A stretch of 64,000 bases of DNA, from the NCBI GenBank assembly GCA_023255965.1, contig JAGDWE010000055.1, positions 155 through 64,154 on the forward strand, in the 5' to 3' direction. The DNA comes from Desulfurococcales archaeon (GTDB lineage Archaea > Thermoproteota > Thermoprotei_A > Sulfolobales > NBVN01). This document shows positions 1,351-63,048 of this stretch, piece by piece. The first letter of the stretch is position 1; each line of letters starts with the position of its first letter. The notes under the pieces were generated by a model. That model had not been told where the DNA came from and ran no database searches. It worked only from the letters and a program-made list of their open reading frames with translations. The position numbers were made by a program, and so were the translations under genes.

Positions 1351-3061
1351 ATAATATGACCTCCTTCAAGCTACCTCCTGGTGGGAGGGTTGGTAATGCT
1401 AATTCCCCCCTATATGTAGGTACTCTTATTACTGAGGTGATGGCGTCATTAATCGACCTCCTAACCGCTGTCTTTAGGTCCTCATAACTACCTACATCGT
1501 AGCCTATAGCACCAAAGCTCTCCGCCAGTTTCACGTAATCAGGCGAGGATCCGAAATCCACTCCTACAACTCTTCCCCTAAAGAACATTCTCTGAACCTG
1601 CCTTACTAGGCCTAAGGACCTATTATCAAATATTACTACTAATATTGGTAAATTCTCCTCTATGGTTACCGCTAAGTTATTCATGGTCATTAAGAATGAC
1701 CCATCCCCATCTAAATCAACTACGACTTTATCAGGTCTCGCTACCTTAGCACCGATGGCAGCAGGAAGCCCGAAGCCCATAGTACCCATACCTCCTGATG
1801 TTAGTAACGTCCTCGGCTGGAGAACATCCCAGAAATTAGCTATCCACATCTGGTGCTGACCTACACCGGTAGTTACTATCGCATCCGGTGGTAAAACCTC
1901 TCTGATGGTCTTTAAAACCTTCCACGGCTTTAATCCGAATTCATCGTCTTCTACATAGTAGTACTTAGCATAGAATTCCTTTAATTCCTTGATTCGGGAG
2001 ATCCAATTATACCTACTAGAGTTGTGGCTGATGTTTAGGATTCGATTTAATAACGCCCTTAAAGCTACCTTAACGTCGCCGCAGATCTTTACATCTACAT
2101 CTATAGGGAGTTTCTTAATATCGGTTGGATCGATGTTTATGATTATGATCCTCCTACCACCTTCCTGTAAGTCCTTAAACGTAGGTATAGTCCTATCACT
2201 TAACCTAGCTCCAACGACTAATATCGCATCTGATTCTAAAAGAGCCATATTCGCCTCAGCCCTTCCGTAATAGCCAACTACACCTAAGTAGAGTGGATAG
2301 TCGTGAGGAACTGCTGCCTTGCCGAGCAATGTTGATACTATTGGACATAAGAGTAACTCCGATAACTTAATGAGTTCCTCTGACGCTCCAGACCACATAA
2401 CTCCTGATCCTGCAAGGATTAATGGTCTTTCAGCATTTACTAATATATCAATGGCCTTATCTATATCCTCATCCCTTATATTATCCTTAAATGGTTTATA
2501 GCCATCAATTAATGGTTCATCAGCCCATACGATGTCATCGACTTCGGCCATTAGTAAGTCCCTTGGAATATCAACCACCACCGGCCCTGGCTTGCCGGTT
2601 GATGCTATGTAGAACGCATTCTTAATCCATAAAGGTATCTCCTTAGCGTCCTTCAATTGCACAACGTATTTAGCTATATGTTGCATGACTCCAAGTACGT
2701 CGGCCTCCTGGAATGCCTTCCTTCCGATTACAGCTCTGGGCACCTGACCAGTTATTGCTACCACTGGACTGTTGTCCCAATACGCTGTTATGAGCCCTGT
2801 AACCAAGTTCATGGTCCCTGGGCCAGATGTCGCAGTACATACTCCAGGCCTTCCAGTAATTCTTGCGTATCCGTCTGCGGCATGTGCTGCACCTTGCTCA
2901 TGTCTCATAAGTATATGTCTTATCTCCTCATTAGATATATAATCATATAATTCATCATATATAGCCATATTGGAGAGTCCTGGTATGCCAAATATCACCT
3001 TTACCCCTTCCCTTTTAAGCGCTTCTACAACTAGCTTAGCTCCTGTAACCATATATAACAC
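1328..3061 (-). CDS. ilvB: Acetolactate synthase large subunit (ThDP-dependent)
   Basis: 577 aa with the ThDP motif DLDGDGSFLMTMNNL, an AHAS-type N-terminal pyrimidine-binding domain and a middle domain. Confidence 0.93.
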
Positions 3062-3170
3062 CTGCAGGTAGCGTCATAAGGCTTATTAACAAGCCATAAT
3101 TTGATTTACGGGGAACTATTTTTACCTTAATTAATGAATTTGGGGTACTTCCACCTACATCACCAGCTCA

Positions 3171-4295
3171 TTAATTATTAGGGATTTTTAAGTCTTTATG
3201 GTCTTTGATTCCTTCCTTAATTGAGGTCCTATATCTATTAACTAATTCTATAATATCGCTATAATCTAACCTTAAACCCTTATCCCCTAACTCCTTGATA
3301 GCCTTTAATAATTCATTAACTAACTCCTCATCCGGCTCCACACCCATCTGCTTTAACATGTACATTACTGCATGTCTCCCGCTATGCTTGCCAAGAACTA
3401 TCCTTCTACTCATCCCAACTACCTCAGGACTTATTGCTTCATAGGTTAATGGATTGGAGAGCACCCCATGTACGTGAATGCCTGACTCATGGGAGAATGC
3501 ATTAATACCTACTATAGGCTTATTAACCGGTATCGTGAACCCGAAGGACTCAGCAACAAGTAATGCCGTAGATGCTATTAACTCAAACCTAATACCTACA
3601 TCTAAACCTAAGAGGAACTTCAACGCAGTAGCTACCTCCTCTAAGGCTGCGTTCCCAGCTCTTTCGCCAACCCCTAATACAGTTACATGAACTTGGTCAG
3701 CTCCTGCCTCAACAGCAGCTATGCTATTAGCTACAGCCATGCCGAAGTCGTTATGACAGTGGACGCTTAATACGTAATTACCCCTAACATTGGTTTTAAC
3801 GTAGTTCACTAAGTGGGACATACGTGAAGGCCATATAACTCCAACCGTATCAGCTATGTCTATCCTATTAGCACCTGCGTTTATTACTTCCTGAAACACC
3901 TTTACTAGGAATTCAGGTCGCGATCTAGTCGCATCCTCAGCACTAAATTCAACTATAAGCCCATGAGATCTTGCATACTCAACCGCTGTAACGGCTCTTT
4001 CAATGACTTCCTCTGGACTTAAGCGTAGCTTATAATTCATGTGAATATCTGAGGTGGCTATGAATAAGTGTACTGCGTTAGCCCCTGAATCCACTACCAT
4101 ATCAATATCCTCCCTGGTAGACCTAGCTAACGCTATTACCTCAGATTTACTTACCTCCTTGGAGATCATTTTAATAGCGTTGAACTCCCCCTTACTTACT
4201 ATTGGGAAGCCAGCTTCTATAGAATCTACACCTAATTCCTCAAGTGCGAGGGCTATTCTTAACTTGCTTTCAGGTGTTAAAGCAATACCAGGCAT
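3171..4295 (-). CDS. 2-isopropylmalate / citramalate / homocitrate synthase family enzyme (short form)
   Basis: 374 aa with DRE-TIM aldolase motifs HCHNDFGMAVANS and SHESGIHVHG. There is no LeuA C-terminal regulatory domain, so the exact substrate is open. It sits upstream of ilvBNC. Confidence 0.85.
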   Translation of the reverse strand: MPGIALTPESKLRIALALEELGVDSIEAGFPIVSKGEFNAIKMISKEVSKSEVIALARSTREDIDMVVDSGANAVHLFIATSDIHMNYKLRLSPEEVIERAVTAVEYARSHGLIVEFSAEDATRSRPEFLVKVFQEVINAGANRIDIADTVGVIWPSRMSHLVNYVKTNVRGNYVLSVHCHNDFGMAVANSIAAVEAGADQVHVTVLGVGERAGNAALEEVATALKFLLGLDVGIRFELIASTALLVAESFGFTIPVNKPIVGINAFSHESGIHVHGVLSNPLTYEAISPEVVGMSRRIVLGKHSGRHAVMYMLKQMGVEPDEELVNELLKAIKELGDKGLRLDYSDIIELVNRYRTSIKEGIKDHKDLKIPNN

Positions 4296-20950: not shown

Positions 20951-21127
20951 AAACTACACTGAAAAATCCTACTTACATCATTTTTAAATTTTTATGTCTG
21001 AAAAGTCCCTCATCATTGAGTTATGATTGGTGTTATAGTACATGACTTGATAGCGATCGACTTCATGGAATTAATGCTGGAGCAATATCCTGAATTAAAA
21101 TGTAGGTGAGGGTGTTTAAGCCCTTAA

Positions 21128-21189
21128 CTGACCTCCAAATGAATGGTGTAAAAACCAAATGGATGTGAGGCTTTACCATTCGGTGTTGG
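21128..21189. repeat. Inverted pair of degenerate hairpin-family copies
   Basis: CTGACCTCCAAATGAATGGTG (21128-21148) faces the reverse complement of GTGAGGCTTTACCATTCGGTGTTGG (21165-21189). Both carry the (A/C)(T/C)GAATGG core. Confidence 0.4.
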
Positions 21190-40433: not shown

Positions 40434-40600
40434 GACTACATTAGTTTTAACGTAAACTTATAAAGGTTTAAAGCTTATCCCGATGAAGAGACCTGCATTC
40501 ACGACTTAAAGCTAATACTTCATCGATGCTTATTTGTCTTAAATTCATTGATTTCGTTGACACCTAGCGTAGTTCATAATACGGGCTACATCATGCTTAC

Positions 40601-40631
40601 AACTGAAAGCCCCGCCCTTTAGGGCGGGGAG
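40601..40631 (-). repeat. GC hairpin repeat, perfect copy 1
   Basis: AACTGAAAGCCCCGCCCTTTAGGGCGGGGAG is identical to 62776-62806. Stem CCCCGCCC/GGGCGGGG with loop TTTA. Begins 18 nt after the thiI stop. Confidence 0.9.
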
Positions 40632-40648
40632 AAGATCAGCTAATTCAT

Positions 40649-42127: not shown

Positions 42128-42161
42128 GGCGGGGCTCTCAACACCTATTCGTGCCTACATT

Positions 42162-42198
42162 CTGACCTCCTTCCCGCCCTAAGGGGCGAGGGTTCTCC
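42162..42198 (+). repeat. GC hairpin repeat, looser relative
   Basis: CTGACCTCCTTCCCGCCCTAAGGGGCGAGGGTTCTCC aligns with the reverse complement of the perfect copy (CTCCCCGCCCTAAAGGGCGGGGCTTTC). Confidence 0.55.
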
Positions 42199-42418
42199 TT
42201 AGAGCAGGGAGGTTTGGAGTTACATTCCCTCTGAGAGGGTTTAGCCCCGGGCCTGTCTCCGGCCCATTACCCCTATCCCGCTTAGTGCAGGACTCGGGTA
42301 ACTGTACCGCTGGAGATGGCCCTGGATTTCATGATATGTCGACGTTTCCATAGCAGGTGCCATTAAATAAGCTTCAACATTAAAATATATTATTAATTTC
42401 TAATCATTCCTCCATAAT

Positions 42419-46599: not shown

Positions 46600-47105
46600 A
46601 TAGCACCTCTAATTATTAATCTGAATGAACTAAATATATTCTAAACGAACTATAGAGGTTAAGCTTTCATTGTTATTAACAATGCTGTCGCTCGCTATCA
46701 CTCCCTTATGCGCTCCTACCTTCCAATCAGAAACATGCTGGCATCATTTAATTCATTAAGCTCATCATGCGGGTCCTCGAACGGGAAACATTATGAGCAA
46801 AGGCCTTGTTATTTATAGCTGAATGAGGGCTCTTAAATCTTGCATCCTACGTCATCTAGCGATGATCCAGGATGGGGACCTCTGGCCGCTCAACTGCCCA
46901 GCAAATGAGGGATGTAATCGAATAGATGTTGGAGTGCCTCTCCGCTCTAAGAGGGCCTATGCATATATTTTGGTTTAACCCCCCTTATTTTGAGGGCGAT
47001 TAAGGGCTTAAGCTCCCTTACCAGCATTTAATCTGATTATCGATTCCGCACCTTCATTTTGGAAACACATCATCAAGTGCATCGTAGGACATGAGTTCAT
47101 GTATA

Positions 47106-47132
47106 CCCACCATAAATGGCGGGCTTTCGGTT
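47106..47132 (+). repeat. GC hairpin repeat, diverged copy
   Basis: CCCACCATAAATGGCGGGCTTTCGGTT aligns with the reverse complement of the perfect copies (CCCCGCCCTAAAGGGCGGGGCTTTCAGTT). Confidence 0.6.
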
Positions 47133-47237
47133 ACAAGATAAAGATTGATTAAAAACATTAAGCTTATTATTAATATTATATTACAGATATTGAATCAGTA
47201 AACAGCGACCTCTAAGGGATAGGGGGTAGATGGTAAT

Positions 47238-47444
47238 ATGAAAACGTCTGGGAGGCTAAATGACGGAGTATGTAGTAGGTGTGGTGGGAGAACATTTATA
47301 CTTATTGAAGTTGAAACCTATGGGAACGGGCTAAAACATGTAAGGTATTTAAATAAGTGTAGGGTATGTGGTAATTTAAGTACTATAGAGGAATTAATGA
47401 TCCGTAGAAATGATAGTGGATTAGCCATATACGTTAAAAAATAA
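47238..47444 (+). CDS. Small zinc-ribbon protein (hypothetical, 68 aa)
   Basis: Two CxxC pairs (CSRCGG...CRVCGN). No other homology recognised. Confidence 0.45.
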   Translation: MKTSGRLNDGVCSRCGGRTFILIEVETYGNGLKHVRYLNKCRVCGNLSTIEELMIRRNDSGLAIYVKK

Positions 47445-47469
47445 ATCAAATCAAAAATCATTTTTAGGT

Positions 47470-48216
47470 TCATAAAATGATTGAAACTATGTCAGATACG
47501 GCCTTGAGGTAATGTAGGGGCATTAGCAGGCCTATGCTTAAATTCTTAGGCGATGTAATTGACTTAACCCAAATGCTCTGTCCGCCAGCATCTAAGTAGC
47601 TTTCAAGGAATTTCCTAGTAAATGCTTTAAATCCATTTAAATCTATGACGTACCTATAGCTAGCGAATAATAGGGTTAACATTAAGTCCCATCCAAATAG
47701 CTCCGGCGACCCTTTCCTTACGGCTTGTTCAGCATCTATTATATATACGTCCTCACCTTTAATGATAAAGTTTGAGGGCTTAACATCACCTAGCGCGAAC
47801 CCCTTTAAGTGTACATCAGCTAAAGCTCTAGCTATTAATGCACATGTGTCCAAGTTATACACCAGCGGCTTTCCATCAATGAATTCCCTAATTATGATTA
47901 AATCCGACTCAACAACCTCATAAATCCTTGGTACCCTGTATCTAGCCCCGTCCCCAGCGCTGAAGAAGAATACCTCCCTATTAAACCTTTCCTGAGGCGA
48001 TATCACGAACGGATATGATGCCTTATACAGCATGGATGGCGGTAGCCACTTAAGTAAGCCTATTTGCTTTTGGAAGCTCTTCCTAACGGCCTTTAAGCCG
48101 TTCCATTCAATTACTTCTATCTGTCCAAGTAGGTTATCGATGCTTAATAGGTGCGTCTCAAAAATGTTCTTCAGATAATCAATGATTTCATTGATTATGT
48201 TTCTATATTCACCCAT
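47470..48216 (-). CDS. Atypical protein kinase-like protein (Bud32/RIO-like fold)
   Basis: Catalytic-loop-like LGDVKPSNFII and IIDAEQA (DFG-equivalent); 248 aa. Confidence 0.5.
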   Translation of the reverse strand: MGEYRNIINEIIDYLKNIFETHLLSIDNLLGQIEVIEWNGLKAVRKSFQKQIGLLKWLPPSMLYKASYPFVISPQERFNREVFFFSAGDGARYRVPRIYEVVESDLIIIREFIDGKPLVYNLDTCALIARALADVHLKGFALGDVKPSNFIIKGEDVYIIDAEQAVRKGSPELFGWDLMLTLLFASYRYVIDLNGFKAFTRKFLESYLDAGGQSIWVKSITSPKNLSIGLLMPLHYLKAVSDIVSIIL

Positions 48217-48224
48217 TATTCCAT

Positions 48225-48764
48225 CTATACACCGATGTTAAGCCCTAATCTAAATGCCTTCTTATTTAGCTCGCTCCACTCCTCGCCTACCACCTCATCA
48301 ATAGCCATTTCAACTGCCTCTGGATTAATTAGTTTAGTTGTCCCTATTAAATGCCCTAACGCAACCATATTGGCTACGCGTATATTGCCTATCTCCCTCT
48401 CAGCTAATTTGGTATATGATGCCCTAAGTACCCTCCAGCCAACATTACTCGGTAATTCACTTACATATGTTTCATCAACATATACTGTGCCATTGCTCTT
48501 TACCAATGATGAGAACTTAACTAGCTGTGCTTGATGCATAAATATCGCTATATCAGCCTTCCTAACTTTTATGAAGTCTAATTCCTCCTCATTATTGGAT
48601 ATTATAAGATCCGCCCTTGAGTCCCCACCTCTGGTCTCAGCTACGTAGGACTCGCTGCATGTTACATATAGATTACTGTATTTAGATGCAGCAACCCCTA
48701 ATACCCTACCAATTAGCAGTATTCCTTGACCCCCTCTACCAGCTATCAATAGTTCATATCGCAT
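48225..48764 (-). CDS. 2-oxoacid:ferredoxin oxidoreductase, gamma subunit
   Basis: LLIAGRGGQGILLIGRVLG motif. Last gene of the delta-alpha-beta-gamma operon. Confidence 0.85.
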   Translation of the reverse strand: MRYELLIAGRGGQGILLIGRVLGVAASKYSNLYVTCSESYVAETRGGDSRADLIISNNEEELDFIKVRKADIAIFMHQAQLVKFSSLVKSNGTVYVDETYVSELPSNVGWRVLRASYTKLAEREIGNIRVANMVALGHLIGTTKLINPEAVEMAIDEVVGEEWSELNKKAFRLGLNIGV

Positions 48765-48766
48765 AA

Positions 48767-49582
48767 TTAGCTCCCATACAACAATTTAATGAATCCGCTC
48801 TTATATTCATTTACGTATTCCCCGAGGACTATTTCCTTACCCCATACTATATCTGATTCATCTATCGATGGCTTTGCTTTAAACTTAATCATCGACTTCA
48901 ACTTATTAAAGAGTTCGACGGGATTTCTAAACCCTATATGCCTGCCAAATACCTCTGGGCATATGGATATTACCTCAATAAACGAGAACCCATCCCTACT
49001 TAATGCGTTGTATATATATCTCTCAATTAGGTGTGGGTGAGTGACCGAAGCCCTAGCCACGTAATTAGTGTTTAATGACGAAACCAACTTGATGAGGTTA
49101 AGTGGGTATTCTAGGTTTCCGTACGGTGTGGTCGTCGTGTAGACCTTCATGGGCGTCGTCGGAGCTACCTGACCGCCGGTCATACCGTATACCATGTTAT
49201 TAACCATTATAACGGTAATGTCCATATTCCTACGAGCTGAATGCAGTAGATGATTACCCCCTATTGCCGCTATATCCCCATCTCCACCAATCACTATGAC
49301 CTTTAGGTTAGGTTTGATAACTTTTAGACCTATCGCAAATGGTATAGCCCTTCCATGAATTACGTGGGCTGAATCGAAGTTCAGGTAGAGGGTCGCTCTA
49401 GCCGTACACCCTATACCTGATACGGTTGCAACATCGTCCTGAGTAAAGTGTCCTTCACTAATATGTCTATCTATGGCTCTGAGCATTGCTGAAATAACTA
49501 TTCCTATCCCGCACCCAGGACACCATATGTGAGGTAGCCTATCAGTTCTTAAGTACCTATCTAATGGGTGAATTATATCCAT
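48767..49582 (-). CDS. 2-oxoacid:ferredoxin oxidoreductase, beta (ThDP-binding) subunit
   Basis: WCPGCG cluster ligands and the ThDP motif GGDGD...NN. Confidence 0.9.
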   Translation of the reverse strand: MDIIHPLDRYLRTDRLPHIWCPGCGIGIVISAMLRAIDRHISEGHFTQDDVATVSGIGCTARATLYLNFDSAHVIHGRAIPFAIGLKVIKPNLKVIVIGGDGDIAAIGGNHLLHSARRNMDITVIMVNNMVYGMTGGQVAPTTPMKVYTTTTPYGNLEYPLNLIKLVSSLNTNYVARASVTHPHLIERYIYNALSRDGFSFIEVISICPEVFGRHIGFRNPVELFNKLKSMIKFKAKPSIDESDIVWGKEIVLGEYVNEYKSGFIKLLYGS

Positions 49583-50697
49583 TCCTTCATTACCTCAAAA
49601 ATTTCATCTGGGGTAGGGACCTCTATATCTATTATAGGTATAGATATGACCTCCTTATTCCTTAGGACTCTACTTATCTCACGTACATAGACCCCTACGT
49701 TATTCTCAACGACAAATACTTTCTTAGCCTTAATCGTCGAATTAATTAACATCTCCTCATCTAAGGGCCATAGCAGCTTAGGTCTATATAACCCTACCTT
49801 AATACCCTTACTCCTTAACTCCCGTATTAATGCATACGCCGACCTAGCAGTACTACCGTATGCGATTAATACATAATCGGCATCATCAACTAGATAAGTT
49901 GCTGAGTCGCTTATTAGGTGTTTATTCTTAAGCACCTTATTAACCAATCTCCAAACAAGCCTTCTCTGCACCTCATTAGTTGCCTTATAGTAGCCCCTTT
50001 CATCATGAGTCAGCGATTCAACCAATACCCTATACCCTTCGCCGAAACATGCCATCGGAGGTACTAAATCTTCCTCTGGTTCATATGGCTTATACTTATC
50101 TCTAGGGACTTTAGGCTTCTTCCTATTAACTATGGATACTTCCGGTGGTTCCCTGATAACCACCCTTTCCCATATATGGGCTAAAGTAGCGTCGCTGAGT
50201 AATATGACTGGGACCCTAAGCATTTCTGATACGTTAAATGCCTTAATAGTTAAGTCGAGGCACTCTTGGACCGACCAAGGAGCATATACAACCAATTCGT
50301 AGTTACCGTGGGCAGCCCATCGCACCTGCATCACATCGTACTGACCTGCCTTAGTCGCTATACCGGTTGAAGGGCCTGCCCTCATTACGTAAGCTAAGAC
50401 TAATGGCGTCTCCGTCATTATGGCCAGGCTTAGTGCCTCAACCATTAAGCTAAACCCTGGACCGCTTGTCGCAGTCATCGCTTTAGCACCTGCCCATGAT
50501 GCCCCAATTACGGCGTTTATTGATGCTATTTCATCCTCAAACTGTAGAACTACACCGCCTTTAGTAGGCAACTTACTAGCTAAATACTCAAAAATTTCCG
50601 TTGACGGAGTTATAGGGTAGCCAGCGTAGAACTTAAGTCCAGCTATTATGGCTGCCTCAGCTATGGCGTGATTCCCGGTTAAATATTCGAGCCTCAT
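49573..50697 (-). CDS. 2-oxoacid:ferredoxin oxidoreductase, alpha subunit
   Basis: N-terminal GNHAIAEAAIIAGLKFYAGYPITPSTEI, typical of POR/KOR alpha subunits. Confidence 0.9.
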   Translation of the reverse strand: MRLEYLTGNHAIAEAAIIAGLKFYAGYPITPSTEIFEYLASKLPTKGGVVLQFEDEIASINAVIGASWAGAKAMTATSGPGFSLMVEALSLAIMTETPLVLAYVMRAGPSTGIATKAGQYDVMQVRWAAHGNYELVVYAPWSVQECLDLTIKAFNVSEMLRVPVILLSDATLAHIWERVVIREPPEVSIVNRKKPKVPRDKYKPYEPEEDLVPPMACFGEGYRVLVESLTHDERGYYKATNEVQRRLVWRLVNKVLKNKHLISDSATYLVDDADYVLIAYGSTARSAYALIRELRSKGIKVGLYRPKLLWPLDEEMLINSTIKAKKVFVVENNVGVYVREISRVLRNKEVISIPIIDIEVPTPDEIFEVMKEWI

Positions 50698-50891
50698 AGT
50701 CCATCGACCTCAACATATATAGCGAAATCAGGGCATATGTACTCACATAATCTACATCCAACGCATTTTTCGATGTACTTAGGGCTTACGTACCTATATC
50801 CATAAATGTTAAATTCGTTGCCGCGTTCTAGGACTTTTTGGGGGCATACGTTAATACATAATCCACACTCCTTACACCTATCGACGATCAC
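50694..50891 (-). CDS. 2-oxoacid:ferredoxin oxidoreductase, delta subunit (2x[4Fe-4S] ferredoxin)
   Basis: Two CxxCxxCxxxCP motifs; GTG start preceded by an SD-like GGTTAGG. Confidence 0.85.
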   Translation of the reverse strand: MIVDRCKECGLCINVCPQKVLERGNEFNIYGYRYVSPKYIEKCVGCRLCEYICPDFAIYVEVDGL

Positions 50892-50997
50892 CCTAACCCT
50901 ATACCTTCCCCTACCCTCAAATGCCCTCGTAGCTGCAGAAAGCTGTGGAATGCGTATCCCTTACGTGTCTTACTCTAAATCATTTAAAGGTTATCGA

Positions 50998-51017
50998 TTT
51001 TATAATGTTTATAAAAT
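50998..51017 (+). promoter_or_regulatory. Tandem TATA-like boxes upstream of repeat arm A
   Basis: TTTTATAAT (50998-51006) and TTTATAAAAT (51008-51017). The second box is centred about 27 nt before 51039, the usual archaeal TATA-to-TSS spacing. Confidence 0.35.
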
Positions 51018-51038
51018 ACTTAAACGCCTACTGCTCAC

Positions 51039-51110
51039 CTAAGATCGTTCGTTCTTTGATGGTCATTGATCACGTCCTCAGATCCTCCGGCCTCCGCAGT
51101 CCCTACCGCC
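51039..51110 (+). repeat. Inverted repeat arm A flanking aEF-2 (72 nt)
   Basis: CTAAGATCGTTCGTTCTTTGATGGTCATTGATCACGTCCTCAGATCCTCCGGCCTCCGCAGTCCCTaCCGCC. Its reverse complement occurs at 53692-53763 with one mismatch. Confidence 0.95.
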
Positions 51111-51327
51111 CTTTAGTGTGGAGAGCCGTCGACAGCTCGCAGGCTCTAAGGTATCTACGAATTTCCTGGCTTAATCGCCTCATTTGGATGCTGAACTCTA
51201 GGGATGGAGTCTAAAGGTGATGTTAGGCACTTAAAAATACCCAGGAGGAGTTAAATAACATCAACCAGGCAACAATCCTTTAGACTTTTAACCCCTTAGA
51301 TAAGTAAATTGTCGTAGGAAGGTAATA

Positions 51328-53541
51328 ATGGTCCGGTATAAGTCGGTAGAGTATATTCAGAAAATAATGTCGAATCTAGAGCAGGTTAGAAATATCGGCA
51401 TAATAGCGCATGTAGATCACGGAAAGACGACTACATCGGATTCCCTACTTGCTGCTGCTGGTATAATATCGAGTAAGGTTGCTGGTGAGGCGTTAGCTAT
51501 GGATTATCTAGATATCGAACAGAAAAGGCAGATGACGGTTAAGGCAGCCAATATAAGCCTGTACCACGAGTATGGGGGCAAGCCCTACGTTATTAACTTA
51601 ATAGACACACCTGGACACGTGGACTTCACCGGCAAGGTTACTAGGTCACTAAGGGTTTTAGATGGTGCAATAGTGGTGGTCGATGCTGTCGAGGGCGTTA
51701 TGACTCAGACGGAGACCGTGTTAAGGCAGGCACTTGAGGAAAGGGTTAGACCGCTACTATTCATTAATAAGGTCGATAGGTTAATTAAGGAATTAAGGTT
51801 GCAGCCTCAGGAAATTCAACAAAGGTTCGTTGATATAATAAAGGAAGTTAATAGCTTAATTCAAGAGTATGCAGAGCCCGAGTTTAGGGATAAATGGTTA
51901 TTGGATCCAGCCAAGGGAATGGTGGCTTTCGGTTCAGCTAAGGATAAGATAGGCTTAACTGTACCTGCATCGCAGAAGAAAGGCGTTAAGATATTAGAGA
52001 TGATGGACGCCTATAGAAAGGGTAGGGAGGCTGTTGAGGAACTACAAAAAGTTATACCGCTTCATGAAGCATTGCTAGATATGGTAGTTAGATTCATCCC
52101 AAATCCCAAAGAGGCTCAAAGGTATAGGATTCCGAAGATATGGCGTGGTGATACGAATTCCGAAGTAGGCAAGGCAATGCTGGAAGCTGATCCTAATGGC
52201 CCTATAGTGTACCTAATTAACGATATGAGGGTGGACCCACATGCAGGATTGGTAGCGACCGGTAGAGTATTCTCGGGTACGTTAAAGTCTGGTGAGGAAT
52301 TATGGCTGATAGGAGCGAGGACGTCTCAAAGGGTTCTTCAGGTGAGCTTGTATATGGGGCCATATAGGGAGGTAGTTGACTTAATAAGCGCCGGCAACAT
52401 AGCAGCTGTGTTAGGGCTAGATAAAGCAAGGGCTGGCGAGACGGCTGTTTCCATGAATATAAAGGATGTAGCACCACCGTTTGAGAGATTACACTACATA
52501 TCAGAGCCCGTCGTCACTATGGCCATAGAGCCTAAGAAGACTACCGACCTAATCAAACTCATTGATGCTTTGAGGAAGATGAGCATTGAGGATCCAAACT
52601 TAGTCGTTAAAATAAATGAGGAAACCGGTGAATACCTGATATCAGGTATGGGTCACCTCCATTTAGAGGTGGTCCTCACCTTACTTAAGGAGAACTACGG
52701 ATTAGAAGTAGATACATCGCCACCTATAGTTGTCTATAGGGAGACCATAAGGGCATCCTCTCAAGTGATCGAGGGCAAGTCGCCAAATAAGCACAATAGG
52801 CTTTACGTAAGTGTAGCACCATTAAATGAAGAAAGTATCAAGCTTATTCAGCAAGGTGTGGTTACTGAGGATATGGATGCTAGGGAAAGAGCTAGGATAC
52901 TGAGGGATCAGGCTGGATGGGACTATGATGAAGCTAGAAGGATTTGGGCAATAGATGAAAACGTCAACGTATTAGTTGATATGACTTCTGGTGTGCAGTA
53001 TCTAAGGGAGGTCAAGGACACAATAATTCAAGGATTTAGATTAGCTATGAAGGAAGGTCCTTTAGCCATGGAACCAGTAAGGGGTGTTAAGGTCATATTA
53101 CATGATGCACTAATTCATGAGGATCCAGCTCATAGAGGTCCAGCGCAGATATATCCAGCGATCAGGAATCCCATATACGCAGGCATATTACTAGCTAAAC
53201 CAACTTTGCTAGAACCGCTCCAGAGGATAGATATTAGGACACCGGTAGACTTCATGAGCAATATTATAACAGTATTAAGTAGGAGAAGAGGTAAGGTGCT
53301 AAACGTTATCCAATTAAGTAGCAGCGTGGTTAGAATCGTGGGTGAGGTACCCGTAGGTGAATCAGCTGACTTAGCTAATGAATTAAGGGGTGTAACAGCT
53401 GGTAAGGCGTTCTGGGGTACCGAGTTCAGTAGATGGGCATCGCTACCAGATTCGCTATTAATGGATGTTGTTAGGGAGATTAGAAAGAGGAAAGGACTTA
53501 AGCCAGAGCCCCCAAGGCCTGAAGACTTCATGCCTTTATAG
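51328..53541 (+). CDS. Translation elongation factor 2 (aEF-2)
   Basis: [10 protein letters not shown]1 motif, [13 protein letters not shown], and the diphthamide-loop HEDPAHRG; 737 aa. Confidence 0.97.
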
Positions 53542-53691
53542 CAACATATAAACCCAATAACACTTGGAACTGTAAACAGCTTCTTGTCTGGTTTATTGAT
53601 GGCCAAGCCCTTATGTCGGGTTGCTTCATCGCCGGCATTGAAAGGAAGCACGATCATAGTATAGCTCAATATGAGAGGATTGCTCCTGAAT

Positions 53692-53763
53692 GGCGGCAGG
53701 GACTGCGGAGGCCGGAGGATCTGAGGACGTGATCAATGACCATCAAAGAACGAACGATCTTAG
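53692..53763 (-). repeat. Inverted repeat arm B flanking aEF-2 (72 nt)
   Basis: 53698-53763 is the exact reverse complement of 51039-51104. 53692-53696 pairs with 51106-51110. The only mismatch is 53697 against 51105. Confidence 0.95.
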
Positions 53764-53850
53764 ATGAATGATGTATCCATGTCCATGGAATCCCAGAGTG
53801 CTGGGAGATTAAGAAAACTAAAGTAGCGTGTTTAGGTGGCCACTGAAACT

Positions 53851-53889
53851 TTACAGCTGGAAGCCTCGCCATTCATGGCTGGGAGGAGG
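53851..53889 (-). repeat. GC hairpin repeat, TGAATGGCGAGG subfamily
   Basis: The reverse complement CCTCCTCCCAGCCATGAATGGCGAGGCTTCCAGCTGTAA matches 55661-55698 at 28 of 33 aligned positions. Confidence 0.75.
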
Positions 53890-53985
53890 TTGGGGTTACC
53901 GGTGATAGTTATATTCTCATTGTGGTTGTTTAGGTAAAGTTTAAATTAAATGATTTATTAGGAGTCTTAGTAGCTTTGGTGCAGA

Positions 53986-54987
53986 GTGATGAATTCGACG
54001 ACGATATATGTTAATAGAAATATTGACAGCATATTTGCGGCTGCGGCTTTGGCAGTTGCATTAGGCAGGAAAGGATATAGGGTATTTATTGAGTTCCCAC
54101 AGGAGAGTAGCCTAAAGAAACTTAACATACATAACTCGTATGCTGTAGACATACTCCATACTTCTGGCGCATCTCTAAGGAACTCTATCGCCCTATCTCA
54201 TCTTTCCCAAAGGAAACTGGGATTGATATATAAGTATGATACTGAAGGCAAATACAATATATACATGAAACTAAGTAACGTAAGTTCCACCTTAGAAATT
54301 GCTTTAGAGTACATAAAGACCTTAAATGAGAGCGTGAGCGTACCTGGCAACCTACTAAATGATCTAGCGTTTATAAAATCTAATAATGTTAAGAGGTTGA
54401 CTCGTATTGGTAGGGTTCTATATTATGCTTATAGATGGGGCTTGAATAACGACGACTTGCTCCATACAATATATAACTATGCATATGGGGTCGTGACTAC
54501 GAAGACGTTAAAATTGAGCGAGAGCCTGGAGAAAGCTGCTAGAAACTTTGAATACTCATTAAACATTAAGGATGAGATAATTAACGAGCAGAGATATATG
54601 CAGAAAGATAATGTTGCACTAGCCATTATCTCAAGTGCTTCAGAGGACGAATTCGTAAGGAGCAATCTCATTTATATTAAAAGCATCATTAACGAATTAC
54701 TTAGCGATCTATGTAGGAAGCACGCGCTTGCTGTATTAGTATACGAATCAAATCAAGTTCATGAAGCAAAGTTCTGCATTAATAGAGATGTACCGATAGA
54801 TCTCTCAAAAATGTTTGCCAGCCTGCCTGGCGATATACTTAGCTATGTAAATTACACATATAAGGGCGCTCAGGCGACCATGACCTTTAAGAACCCAAAT
54901 AACGCAACCTTAGATAACGCCATAAGGATCTGTAACGCGGTAATATCTGAGTTTATTCAGGCAATTAAAGGAGTTAGAAATAATTAA
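53986..54987 (+). CDS. Hypothetical protein with degenerate DHH-like N-terminus
   Basis: 333 aa. TIYVNRNIDSIFAAAALAVALG aligns by eye with DHH motif I of the bona fide DHH protein at 60186-61214 (CIVTHRNADLDAIASALVLSEV), but the Asp pair and the DHH triad are missing. Confidence 0.5.
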   Translation: MMNSTTIYVNRNIDSIFAAAALAVALGRKGYRVFIEFPQESSLKKLNIHNSYAVDILHTSGASLRNSIALSHLSQRKLGLIYKYDTEGKYNIYMKLSNVSSTLEIALEYIKTLNESVSVPGNLLNDLAFIKSNNVKRLTRIGRVLYYAYRWGLNNDDLLHTIYNYAYGVVTTKTLKLSESLEKAARNFEYSLNIKDEIINEQRYMQKDNVALAIISSASEDEFVRSNLIYIKSIINELLSDLCRKHALAVLVYESNQVHEAKFCINRDVPIDLSKMFASLPGDILSYVNYTYKGAQATMTFKNPNNATLDNAIRICNAVISEFIQAIKGVRNN

Positions 54988-55044
54988 TCAGACAAAAACG
55001 TACGAAAAGGTAGTGAAGTTAAATAATGTACTCCTACACATACC

Positions 55045-55479
55045 TTAGGCGTATTTACTCTTACTTATAACCCTTACGTAACTTATCTCTGTCGTAGGGT
55101 ATTGTCCATGCTCATCTTTCTCATATTTTTTAACCATATCCCATATATTTAACAAGGAAATTGTGACAGCCGTTAACGCCTCCATTTCCACGCCCGTCTG
55201 TGCCTGTGCTCTAACAACAGCTCTTACCTTAATGCCCTCATCTAACACTTCAACCTCTATATCTACGTAACTTACTGGTATCGGATGACAGAGCGGGAGA
55301 ATTTCGGGGGTTTTCTTAGCAGCAATTAAGCCAGATATTTTCGCTACAGTCAACACATCACCTTTCTCCACCTTGCCGCATTTAATGAGTTCTATAGTCC
55401 CCTTCCTTAATTTAATAAAACCCTCCGCAATAGCTTCCCTTAGAATTACCTCCTTACCACTTACATCAATCATTCGCAC
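55045..55479 (-). CDS. moaC: Cyclic pyranopterin monophosphate synthase MoaC
   Basis: LIAAKKTPEILPLCHPIPV and GVEMEALTAVTISLLNIWDM motifs; GTG start (ATG two codons later). Confidence 0.92.
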   Translation of the reverse strand: MRMIDVSGKEVILREAIAEGFIKLRKGTIELIKCGKVEKGDVLTVAKISGLIAAKKTPEILPLCHPIPVSYVDIEVEVLDEGIKVRAVVRAQAQTGVEMEALTAVTISLLNIWDMVKKYEKDEHGQYPTTEISYVRVISKSKYA

Positions 55480-55538
55480 AGCAATAATTCCACCATGAAA
55501 AGCTGGAGACCTAAGTTATAAAACTTAACTTTAGAATT

Positions 55539-55618
55539 GGGCCGGGGGCGGCCCTCCCCACTTCATACACCCCCGGGACTCGGGGGAATCCAGGGGCCTC
55601 AATTATCTTATATCTTTT
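55539..55618 (+). ncRNA. Candidate small GC-rich structured RNA (class unknown; strand uncertain)
   Basis: A 62-nt core rich in G and C within AT-rich flanks. Hairpins GGGCCG-GGGG-CGGCCC (55539-55554) and CCCCCG-GGACT-CGGGGG (55570-55586). A TATA-like GTTATAAAA lies at 55515-55523, though it could equally serve moaC on the other strand. CTTTT at 55614-55618. Confidence 0.3.
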
Positions 55619-55660
55619 AAAGGTATTTAACTATTTCCTACTTACGATCCTTACTTTTAA

Positions 55661-55698
55661 CTGAGCTCCTCCCCGCACTGAATGGCGAGGATTCCTGC
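55661..55698 (+). repeat. GC hairpin repeat, TGAATGGCGAGG subfamily
   Basis: CTGAGCTCCTCCCCGCACTGAATGGCGAGGATTCCTGC, partner of 53851-53889. Confidence 0.75.
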
Positions 55699-55784
55699 AT
55701 ATATTTGAGTTTACATTAATTTTATTTGGAGGGCAATATATCATCGCAGATATGTGTCACAGAACGTGAGCCCATAAGCATTCG

Positions 55785-55814
55785 TACCAACCAAAATGGC
55801 AGGGCTTTCAATCG
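55785..55814 (+). repeat. GC hairpin repeat, diverged copy
   Basis: TACCAACCAAAATGGCAGGGCTTTCAATCG closely resembles 47103-47132 (TACCCACCATAAATGGCGGGCTTTCGGTT). Confidence 0.55.
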
Positions 55815-55965
55815 TAAACAACTATCAGATCAGGTTCCTTTCGTCATCTATGGTGGGAATAAATATTGCTTCATAACTATATTGTTCGCTCACATCCAGC
55901 TATATACGATACTAAGATATTAATATCCAATATGTTTTTATTTAGTTAGTAATTAATCATAGGTT

Positions 55966-56316
55966 CTAACCCTTTCTACGCGTTGAAACGACTTCGGGGA
56001 CTATGTCAGGGCTCTCTAACTCCTCCACCCTACTCTCAAGTTCCGTCAACTTAATGATCACATTCTCAAGAACTTTCATTATTTGATTTAGCCTACCCTC
56101 GATGTATACTAACCTAGAGCTTAAATCGCCTAGATCTCCATCACTTAATCTCGCATTATTACCGCTAATCATTAGTTCGTTCTTGAGCCCGAGCATTATG
56201 TACACCTTTATTAGATCAGTTATCTGAATACCTAATTCTTCAGCCCTGCTTTTTAATTCCCTGTAGAGGCTCTCTGGGACTGAGAGATGCACTGTCGGTA
56301 TGTATATCACTCTCAA
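55966..56316 (-). CDS. Ribbon-helix-helix domain protein with C-terminal coiled coil
   Basis: N-terminal VHLSVPESLYRELKSRAEELGIQITDLIKVYIMLGL (strand plus two helices), then heptad-like LNQIMKVLENVIIKLTELESRVEELE. Confidence 0.55.
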   Translation of the reverse strand: MRVIYIPTVHLSVPESLYRELKSRAEELGIQITDLIKVYIMLGLKNELMISGNNARLSDGDLGDLSSRLVYIEGRLNQIMKVLENVIIKLTELESRVEELESPDIVPEVVSTRRKG

Positions 56317-56444
56317 GAAAACTCTTACAAGAAGAGTATATAAGTCTATTGATAATATGTATTCCTACTTCAACAAGTATCTATTTACGTAAACACTCGT
56401 CAATAATATCTACCAGTATTACCCTAATTATCTAGGGTGATACT

Positions 56445-56630
56445 CTGCGAGTAATTACTTTTAAAGTTGATGATGTATTAGTTATAGAGATAGATAAGCT
56501 AGCTAATTCGCTAGGCATTAGTAGATCTGAAGTAATAAGGAAGGCTTTAATAGAGTACCTAAGGGCTAAGGGAAAGTCATTGATATCAAGCACCAAAGAG
56601 TTAAATATAAGAAAAATCACTTTAACTTAA
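56445..56630 (+). CDS. Ribbon-helix-helix (CopG-like) protein, putative CTG start
   Basis: Not in the ORF track. The frame opens after TAG 56433-56435. Translation (L/M)RVITFKVDDVLVIEIDKLANSLGISRSEVIRKALIEYLRAKGK is paralogous to the RHH at 5789-5962. AGGGTGAT (SD-like) lies 3 nt upstream of the CTG. The minus-strand ORF 56432-56620 looks like its shadow. Confidence 0.45.
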   Translation: MRVITFKVDDVLVIEIDKLANSLGISRSEVIRKALIEYLRAKGKSLISSTKELNIRKITLT

Positions 56631-57270
56631 AGACGACTACAGCCCTACTAGGCAAGCTGTCCTTAGAAACCGTCCACGAATTGCTCCCTAGATTTATGAC
56701 TTCACGATCTACTATCAGTTTAAGGAAGTCTGAGAGAGGTGCTAGCGGCAAATTTATCCCCTCAACCCAGTAATGCATTGGAATAACTACCCTCACATCT
56801 AAAGCTCTAGATAATTGATGGGCCTCATTAGCATCTATGGTAAAAGTCCCTCCCACTGGTAACATGGCTACATCTACCGGCTTTAAAGCATTTAATTCTT
56901 CATCAGCTAGTAGGTGCCCTAGATCACCTACATGAAGTATGTTGATGCCTTCAATGCCGATCCTATACATTACTACCTCGCCCCTCCTCCTGCCTTTCGC
57001 TTTATCATGAAATGCTTTAATACCTAGTACATCGTGCTCGAAGACGTTAAACTTGCCTACCTTCATGCTATAAACTAATCCATCCTTCTTCAGCACAACA
57101 TTGTATGCGTTATGATCGAAATGCTCATGAGTAATTAATACTGCATCAGCCTTGATATTGGGTGGTTTGATCCCTATGCTTCTACCATCATGTGGATCTA
57201 TAACTATGGACCTGCCCTTACTATCTATTAATTCAAAGCATGCGTGGCCATGCCACCTAATTGTAGGCAA
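56617..57270 (-). CDS. MBL-fold metal-dependent hydrolase (UlaG/COG2220-like)
   Basis: WHGHACF N-terminus and ITHEHFDHN motif; 217 aa. Confidence 0.75.
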   Translation of the reverse strand: MPTIRWHGHACFELIDSKGRSIVIDPHDGRSIGIKPPNIKADAVLITHEHFDHNAYNVVLKKDGLVYSMKVGKFNVFEHDVLGIKAFHDKAKGRRRGEVVMYRIGIEGINILHVGDLGHLLADEELNALKPVDVAMLPVGGTFTIDANEAHQLSRALDVRVVIPMHYWVEGINLPLAPLSDFLKLIVDREVINLGSNSWTVSKDSLPSRAVVVFKLK

Positions 57271-62740: not shown

Positions 62741-62775
62741 AAGTTATAAGATGAAATAAAACATAATATTTTTAT

Positions 62776-62806
62776 AACTGAAAGCCCCGCCCTTTAGGGC
62801 GGGGAG
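62776..62806 (-). repeat. GC hairpin repeat, perfect copy 2
   Basis: A 31-mer identical to 40601-40631, lying between the convergent acdB-like and Pcc1-like genes. Confidence 0.9.
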
Positions 62807-63048
62807 GGGGTTAGAAAATTAATTGCGTCATTAACTAGCTTCATCATTCTTAAAGTTGAATTAACCACGGCCCTTACTGAGTTTAGGTCTTTAGCATCAA
62901 TGGATATGATTAGTGAATTACTTGATTTAATAACCTTCATCCTAATCGACTTAGCCTTTAGCTCCTCTTCAGGCTTTAGCGATCTATATATAGTCTCTAA
63001 TGTTAAGCCACTAACGTCGTATACCTTAATTAAGGTCCTACACCTCAT
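62794..63048 (-). CDS. Putative KEOPS subunit Pcc1
   Basis: 84 aa, with a pattern like the Pcc1/CTAG family (ISIDAKDLNSVRAVVNSTLRMMKL). Position after the Brix gene is as in other archaea. The last codons lie in the GC hairpin repeat. Confidence 0.55.
   Translation of the reverse strand: MRCRTLIKVYDVSGLTLETIYRSLKPEEELKAKSIRMKVIKSSNSLIISIDAKDLNSVRAVVNSTLRMMKLVNDAINFLTPSPP

Follow-up and report, generated by a model that had tools for sequence, protein, structure and literature searches.

The gene for the translation factor aEF-2 of an uncultured hot-spring archaeon from the Desulfurococcaceae/Sulfolobales group is bracketed by two long, nearly identical DNA segments in opposite orientation. 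This raises the question whether such an inverted repeat acts on the EF-2 transcript, belongs to a mobile or invertible element or is the trace of a past genome rearrangement. We addressed this question in a stretch of 64 kb from contig JAGDWE010000055.1, called the window hereafter, to which all coordinates refer unless stated otherwise. A preliminary description of the window had reported an inverted repeat of 72 bp with a perfect run of 66 bp around the gene, and this repeat turned out to be real, at the reported place and slightly longer than first recognized (82 nt). In the nearest relative that was identified, EF-2 has the opposite orientation. We see about an even chance that the two arms of the repeat are the ends of a small, recent inversion of 2.65 kb containing a single gene, and that they were duplicated, with inversion, in the same event.

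Results

A repeat search aligned two arms of 82 nt each (arm A and arm B, Table 1), which are 95% complementary, are separated by 2569 nt and enclose the entire EF-2 open reading frame (ORF), as had been described. The 66-mer at 51039-51104 recurs a single time in the window, as its reverse complement at 53698-53763, and was matched in none of 100 shuffled sequences. Reading of the sequence also reproduced the reported mismatch between A at 51105 and position 53697 (C on the + strand), which is followed by five further paired bases. Past the 72 bp first reported, the similarity continues for 4 nt at the outer end (TCA[C/T]) and for 6 nt at the inner end, with two additional mismatches. All four mismatches are located at the ends of the arms and the 66-nt core is perfect. 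The flanks outside the 82 nt cannot be aligned with each other, in agreement with the earlier statement that they are unrelated. Sensitive BLAST with both extended arms detected no third copy in the window, nor does the window contain a second inverted pair of this kind, and the arms consist of otherwise unique non-coding DNA.

An assembly artefact is very unlikely as the source of the repeat. The window matches contig Ga0199148_1000066 of the JGI metagenome 3300019821, and the same locus was retrieved from the ENA SPAdes assemblies ERZ1669248 and ERZ1669249 and from Logan assemblies of the runs SRR6311222 and SRR6311223. When k is smaller than 66, a de Bruijn graph leaves it ambiguous how a segment enclosed by such a repeat is oriented, and an assembler might have created the repeat itself or the apparent direction of what lies between its arms; the Logan contigs, assembled with k=31, indeed break at the arms. 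We give this explanation hardly any credence. In the arms, not a single base differs between the window and the three separately fetched assemblies (one from JGI, two from ENA SPAdes), and all share the same orientation, whereas the long contigs differ from the window by a few strain-specific single-nucleotide polymorphisms (SNPs) elsewhere, one of them at 53771 just past arm B. The Logan contigs come from two further sequencing runs, and two of them, L002 and L087, stop exactly 30 nt into the perfect core (L002 at both ends), which is what a genuine inverted repeat would cause in a de Bruijn graph. Moreover, the inner ends of the two arms differ, and the arms are presumably shorter than a typical read.

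The repeat is restricted to a single lineage. Of the 149 EF-2 loci for which both flanks extended over 300 nt or more, four are flanked by the inverted repeat, and all four are assemblies of this genome; elsewhere, the best match spans 13-16 nt, which is chance level. The preliminary description had asked whether the EF-2 locus is always flanked by the arms, and they are absent from the 145 other loci. The arm sequence was found in none of 80 EF-2 loci from genomes (0/80), did not appear in subsequent searches by BLAST and tblastx that extended to part of 80 metagenome loci, and was found nowhere in about 1.5 Mb of related loci. Collections of plasmids, phages and viral contigs, searched for a virus or plasmid origin, gave no match either. 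A 23-mer from the arm had no match in a metagenome contig collection that does not contain the source contig itself. As a candidate for coding sequence, the arm was rejected: on the + strand, a frame is open through both arms (ORFs of 89 and 68 amino acids), but the two ORFs share nothing except the arm and have no Pfam match, and on the other strand both arms contain a frame of 25 codons that is closed by an identical stop codon. A search with any arm frame among 5.8 billion protein clusters retrieved nothing similar.

The closest species representative has an EF-2 with 90% amino acid identity, and an EF-2 scan of metagenome contigs returned no relative closer than this. A nearer relative was found via the fast-evolving downstream gene hyp332 on a Logan contig of 5006 nt (L083, from DRR082460). 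Its EF-2 is 97% identical to that of the window at the amino acid level and 88.7% at the nucleotide level, with identities of 81% for hyp332, 86% for MoaC and 87% for hyp116. Cluster look-ups placed the EF-2 of the window on two contigs and that of L083 on one, with no further close lineage in the collection. In L083, EF-2 is encoded on the - strand relative to hyp332(+), MoaC(-) and hyp116(-), whereas it is on the + strand in the window with the same three genes unchanged. Positions 34-2315 of L083 align to window positions 53559-51277 in reverse, and 2377-4088 to 53930-55638 in forward orientation. The arms lie outside the alignable flipped piece and bracket exactly the flipped gene. The start codons of EF-2 and hyp332 face each other head to head in L083, 170 nt apart, and no arm is present between them. 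Three stretches of the window have no counterpart in L083, namely 51117-51276, 53560-53685 and 53768-53850. Downstream of EF-2, BLAST aligned the first 18 nt of the 3' flank, and a weaker match can be followed by eye to about 53590, which corresponds to the end of the L083 contig 46 nt past the EF-2 stop codon. A second contig from the same sample, L088, which was identified via the PORa homologue P0010, ends within the ferredoxin gene.

In the outgroup loci (L003-L009 and L090), the genes are arranged in the order Fd-POR(+), hyp332(+/-), MoaC(+), X(-), EF-2(+), Y(-), hyp116(-), lact217(-), AsnC(+). The order is X(-), POR(-), EF-2(+), hyp332(+), MoaC(-), hyp116(-) in the window and EF-2(-), hyp332(+), MoaC(-), hyp116(-) in L083, and on L088, X and POR are ordered as in the window. 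When these arrangements are sorted by inversions, L083 represents an intermediate from which the window differs by one more flip of EF-2 only. Rooted on the outgroup order, this sorting weakly suggests that the window shows the derived state, and the repeat would then occur in the lineage that flipped. Another single-gene flip within the clade concerns hyp332 (L004 and L006 versus L003, L008 and L009), and small inversions are common in this clade.

Gene order around EF-2 is heavily scrambled altogether: the POR block, hyp332, MoaC and EF-2 change orientation or position among close relatives (L003-L009 and L090 compared with window positions 47000-57000), the outgroup gene X251 has moved, and Y288 is missing at the window locus. 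A 68-nt intergenic motif with the core GGTGAGGG.G.TTAAGCCCTTAA..CCTC.AAAT occurs in two inverted copies (21098-21165 and 46962-47029, 74% identity), the second of which lies at the left margin of the block whose arrangement differs from the outgroups. Between MoaC and hyp116, a GC-rich intergenic stretch (55537-55600, L083 3988-4050) is about 97% identical to L083, compared with 82-87% for the flanking genes; it folds as two hairpins, has no Rfam match and is a candidate small RNA. At the POR end of the locus, an ORF on the - strand (50694-50891) encodes a 4Fe-4S ferredoxin of 65 amino acids (identified by Pfam; POR delta subunit), which overlaps the start of POR alpha and is missing from the JGI gene calls.

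The positions of the arms relative to the predicted transcription signals are summarized in Table 1. About 50 nt upstream of the EF-2 start codon, and within the arms, lies a proximal promoter that is 90% identical over 52 nt in L083 and partly kept, equally far from the ATG, in the outgroup loci L004 and L005. This conservation indicates that these 50 nt are EF-2's own promoter and leader, and EF-2 expression does not appear to need the arms. The TATA-like boxes at 50998-51017, which the preliminary description had noticed before arm A, are present about 25 nt upstream of the arm, and reading of the sequence confirmed that arm B lacks a comparable box upstream on its own strand. Likewise, there is no T5+ tract between the EF-2 stop codon and arm B, nor on the + strand in the whole of 51035-54000. 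Folding of the arms and of all spacers on both strands yielded no structure better than shuffled sequence, and tblastx against about 165 related loci revealed no relic of a lost neighbouring gene in the intergenic DNA.

Table 1. Coordinates of features at the EF-2 locus and of the GC-hairpin family in the window
Feature	Position	Strand	Remarks
Tandem TATA-like boxes ttttataatgtttataaaat	50996..51018	+	Divergent intergenic region of POR operon and EF-2; ~25 nt 5' of arm A; putative promoter, judged from sequence
Arm A	51035..51116	+	Perfect core 51039-51104; inner end CCCTACCGCCCTTTAG resembles left half and loop of the GC-hairpin family
Spacer between arm A and EF-2 promoter, 160 nt	51117..51276	+	No counterpart in L083 or any other locus
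Proximal EF-2 promoter and leader CTTTTAACCCCTTAGATAAGTAAAT...GGAAGGTAATAATG	51277..51327	+	Within the flipped piece
aEF-2 gene, 737 aa	51328..53541	+	Pfam GTP_EFTU, EFG_III, EFG_IV, EFG_C
EF-2 3' flank up to arm B	53542..53685	+	No T-rich terminator
Arm B	53686..53767	-	Reverse complement of arm A; perfect core 53698-53763; inner end CCCTGCCGCCATTCAG, then unrelated sequence
Spacer between arm B and GC-hairpin element	53768..53845	+	Missing from L083
GC-hairpin family copy	53846..53899	+	HgcC-like, below Rfam threshold; just outside arm B
hyp332 promoter and ORF (332-aa hypothetical protein)	53930..54987	+	First gene of the hyp332/MoaC/hyp116 block
GC-hairpin family, five copies	40592-40645(+), 62767-62820(+), 42156-42209(-), 53846-53899(+), 55655-55707(-)		

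The inner ends of the arms had been reported to resemble the left half of a GC-hairpin repeat family. This element has the form CCCCGCCC-TTTA-GGGCGGGG followed by AGGAGGTCAG, and is modelled as an 8-bp GC stem with a 4-nt loop and conserved flanks. Its five copies in the window give sub-threshold matches of 20-32 bits to the Rfam family HgcC (RF00062), and a covariance model built from them (R1) scores all five at 54-69 bits. The resemblance is borne out by the motif CCGCCNTTNAG, which is shared with the inner arm ends and occurs six times in the window versus 0.24 expected; in contrast, R1 reported neither arm at E<=10 with filters switched off. By these sequence comparisons, the arms are not members of the GC-hairpin family, and the likeness is real but partial. 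R1 found one marginal match when applied to 424 kb of related loci, L083 and L088 among them, and the family looks like a lineage-specific expansion. Two inverted copies of the family (53856-53888 and 55666-55698, 33 nt, 85%) bracket hyp332 and MoaC, a block whose internal orientation differs from the outgroups. Another copy forms the end of a GC-rich (59%) stretch on the - strand at 42149-42305 with overlapping weak Rfam matches (sot0042, 29 bits; HgcC, 25 bits), which may be a longer small-RNA gene.

Discussion

The arms bracket the one gene that is flipped relative to the nearest relative, occur in this lineage only and consist of unique non-coding DNA. Together, these properties are the signature of an inversion with inverted duplication at its junctions. 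The earlier suggestion of a recombination substrate able to flip EF-2 gains direct comparative support from the opposite orientation in L083, in the modified form that we read the arms mainly as the footprint of an inversion. Inverted duplications of unique sequence, between 46 bp and 1.9 kb long, have been described at inversion breakpoints and attributed to staggered breaks, and in 12 cases the duplication was derived from one breakpoint only (Ranz et al., 2007, PMC1885836). At the EF-2 locus, the inversion would have reversed a 2.65-kb piece with the gene and its proximal promoter with respect to the closest known relative, and would also have generated the second copy of about 66-82 bp. 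If the breaks were staggered and then repaired by fill-in and end joining, or alternatively if replication switched templates, the stretch beside the POR/EF-2 intergenic promoter could have been copied, in inverted orientation, into the other junction. The ragged similarity at the arm ends could then represent junction microhomology. Since that event, the arms would have formed 66 bp of perfect inverted homology, open to gene conversion, and homologous recombination between them might flip the segment again. Duplication during the inversion explains why no arm is present at the L083 junction and why no further copy was found, and we favour it, at about even probability, over recombination between copies that were already in place, for which we see a distinctly smaller chance. 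It predicts a single ancestral copy of the arm at the second junction of L083.

Several observations weigh against this interpretation. The flipped orientation was seen on one 5-kb contig from one sample, where one junction is visible and the second, past the 3' end of EF-2, lies beyond the contig end. Unalignable stretches of about 160 nt (51117-51276) and about 95-126 nt (53560/53591-53685) separate the arms from the piece that aligns with L083, and a further 83 nt past arm B (53768-53850) are missing from L083. The arrangement is therefore not a clean two-break flip of that in L083, and at least one further indel of about 240 nt has to be assumed. The arm copies were counted in the window and the searched collections. 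A perfect core with all mismatches at the ends also fits older repeats that were homogenized by gene conversion. Finally, the inner end of arm A runs into degenerate sequence similar to the hairpin family, and that of arm B matches a different variant, CGCCATTCAG, which hints that the arms may both belong to a small repeat family instead of one being a fresh copy of the other.

The last two points lead to a history in which two inverted copies of a short element flanked EF-2 beforehand, possibly a small RNA (sRNA)-like module or one resembling a miniature inverted-repeat transposable element (MITE), composed of the 66-nt core and half a GC hairpin. The gene would have been flipped, and may still be, by recombination between these copies, either homologous or assisted by a recombinase. 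We consider such a history rather unlikely, yet the next most probable one. The perfect core with diverged edges is as found with gene conversion between recombining repeats, and the inner ends resemble two different hairpin variants. With five copies in 64 kb and one marginal match in 424 kb from relatives, the hairpin family suggests that this genome recently gained short intergenic repeats, which keeps an explanation by repeated elements alive. A precedent in archaea is provided by the Thermococcales, in which the pTN3 integrase causes inversions between short inverted identical segments, down to 104 bp (Cossu et al., 2017, PMC5495485). However, two inverted copies predating the split of the lineages would have left an arm at the EF-2/hyp332 junction of L083, where none is found. 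There are only two arm copies in the window, and none in the other collections or as called ORF. Terminal inverted repeats are lacking within each arm (the ends CTAAG...CTTTAG give at most 5-6 nt), and the single-strand folds are not better than those of shuffled sequences (z = +1.2 and -1.0). The hairpin covariance model misses both arms, and Rfam searches of the window and the locus, at gathering thresholds and at E<=10, reported nothing over either of them. Box C/D or H/ACA RNAs were considered as well and rejected by eye, with no box C/D pair at workable spacing. With neither terminal repeats nor a fold, Rfam match or further copy where searched, the earlier proposal of inverted insertions of a MITE/sRNA module gained no support. 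Neither an integrase nor a resolvase or transposase is among the Pfam families listed for genes up to about 10 kb away in either direction, where the only DNA-repair protein is an ERCC4/XPF-type nuclease. We judge it improbable, though less so than the two functional explanations considered below, that two copies of an ordinary dispersed repeat came to lie beside EF-2 by coincidence, unrelated to the inversion relative to L083. The limited territory in which arm copies were counted and the presence of other short intergenic repeat families in the genome would be compatible with this, but the repeat brackets precisely the one gene that differs in orientation from the nearest relative, and no third copy turned up in the window or any searchable collection.

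A functional role of the arms, at the level of DNA or RNA, has little probability in our view. That the arms form a working flip-flop, in which the 66-bp perfect cores recombine and the EF-2 cassette is inverted repeatedly, is very doubtful. Both orientations were not found within one population, the window and the three fetched assemblies all having the same one. If a flip-flop did operate, the strong external TATA promoter before arm A would read EF-2 either in sense or, from its 3' end, in antisense direction. Expression of this core translation factor would then vary in a heritable but reversible manner, and accompanying gene conversion would keep the core perfect. Marginally less probable still is a long transcript from the upstream TATA boxes in which the arms pair to an 82-bp helix, forming a panhandle of the EF-2 mRNA for processing, circularization or stabilization. 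Arm A starts where transcription from a strong TATA promoter is predicted to begin, the lack of a terminator-like T5+ run makes co-transcription possible, and the duplex has a predicted energy of -157.5 kcal/mol and is continuous, with three 1x1 mismatches and no bulges. The archaeal bulge-helix-bulge motif consists of two 3-nt bulges 4 bp apart, and it is thus not present in this helix. Furthermore, the repeat is missing from 145 other EF-2 loci, including that of the 97%-identical relative, the conserved promoter of EF-2 lies within the arms, not more than 50 nt from the ATG, and there is no Rfam match. For the same reasons, the analogy to a pre-rRNA-like stem around the EF-2 mRNA, drawn in the preliminary description, is not supported.

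Small inversions have extensively reshuffled the gene order of hyperthermophilic archaea, and their molecular cause is mostly unknown outside insertion sequence (IS) elements and integrases. The EF-2 locus offers a clean and recent flip of a single gene, with an orphan inverted duplication of 82 bp at its junctions and a sister lineage in the opposite state, and could help to tell breakage with fill-in or template switching from recombination between short repeats. It also illustrates that a conspicuous inverted repeat, even when it encloses an essential gene, is not necessarily an RNA signal.

Among known systems, archaeal pre-rRNA processing stems are similar to the EF-2 arms in that inverted repeats flank a whole gene and would form a long helix if co-transcribed. 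In contrast to these stems, the EF-2 repeat surrounds a protein-coding gene with its own promoter inside the arms, has no bulge-helix-bulge and is found in no relative. Site-specific invertible DNA switches such as fimS, hin/gin and the shufflons share with the EF-2 locus a segment that is bounded by inverted repeats and found both ways, at EF-2 in two lineages. Unlike in these switches, no recombinase gene is adjacent to EF-2, the arms far exceed the usual length of a recombinase site, the gene takes its promoter along, and the assemblies from one population show one orientation. The Thermococcales inversions are closer, as they likewise concern an archaeal chromosome in a clade with scrambled gene order and are bounded by about 100 bp of inverted identical DNA. 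However, they are large and caused by a plasmid-borne tyrosine recombinase (PMC5495485), whereas the EF-2 locus belongs to a different lineage (a Desulfurococcaceae/Sulfolobales group of metagenome-assembled genomes) and has no listed integrase family within about 10 kb. The breakpoint duplications of Drosophila differ in belonging to megabase-scale inversions, compared with one gene of an archaeon on 2.65 kb, and are on average roughly 88% similar, far less than the EF-2 arms with their core of 100% (PMC1885836). At EF-2, the arms are separated from the homologous piece by additional DNA that cannot be aligned, and the single-copy ancestral state is a prediction. Common to both are a segment inverted relative to the sister lineage, flanking by an inverted duplication of non-repetitive sequence, an arm size within the range of 46 bp to 1.9 kb and the presumed origin of the duplication from one breakpoint, as in 12 of the Drosophila cases. 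Read in this way, the EF-2 arms are a fresh case of an already known footprint of genome rearrangement.

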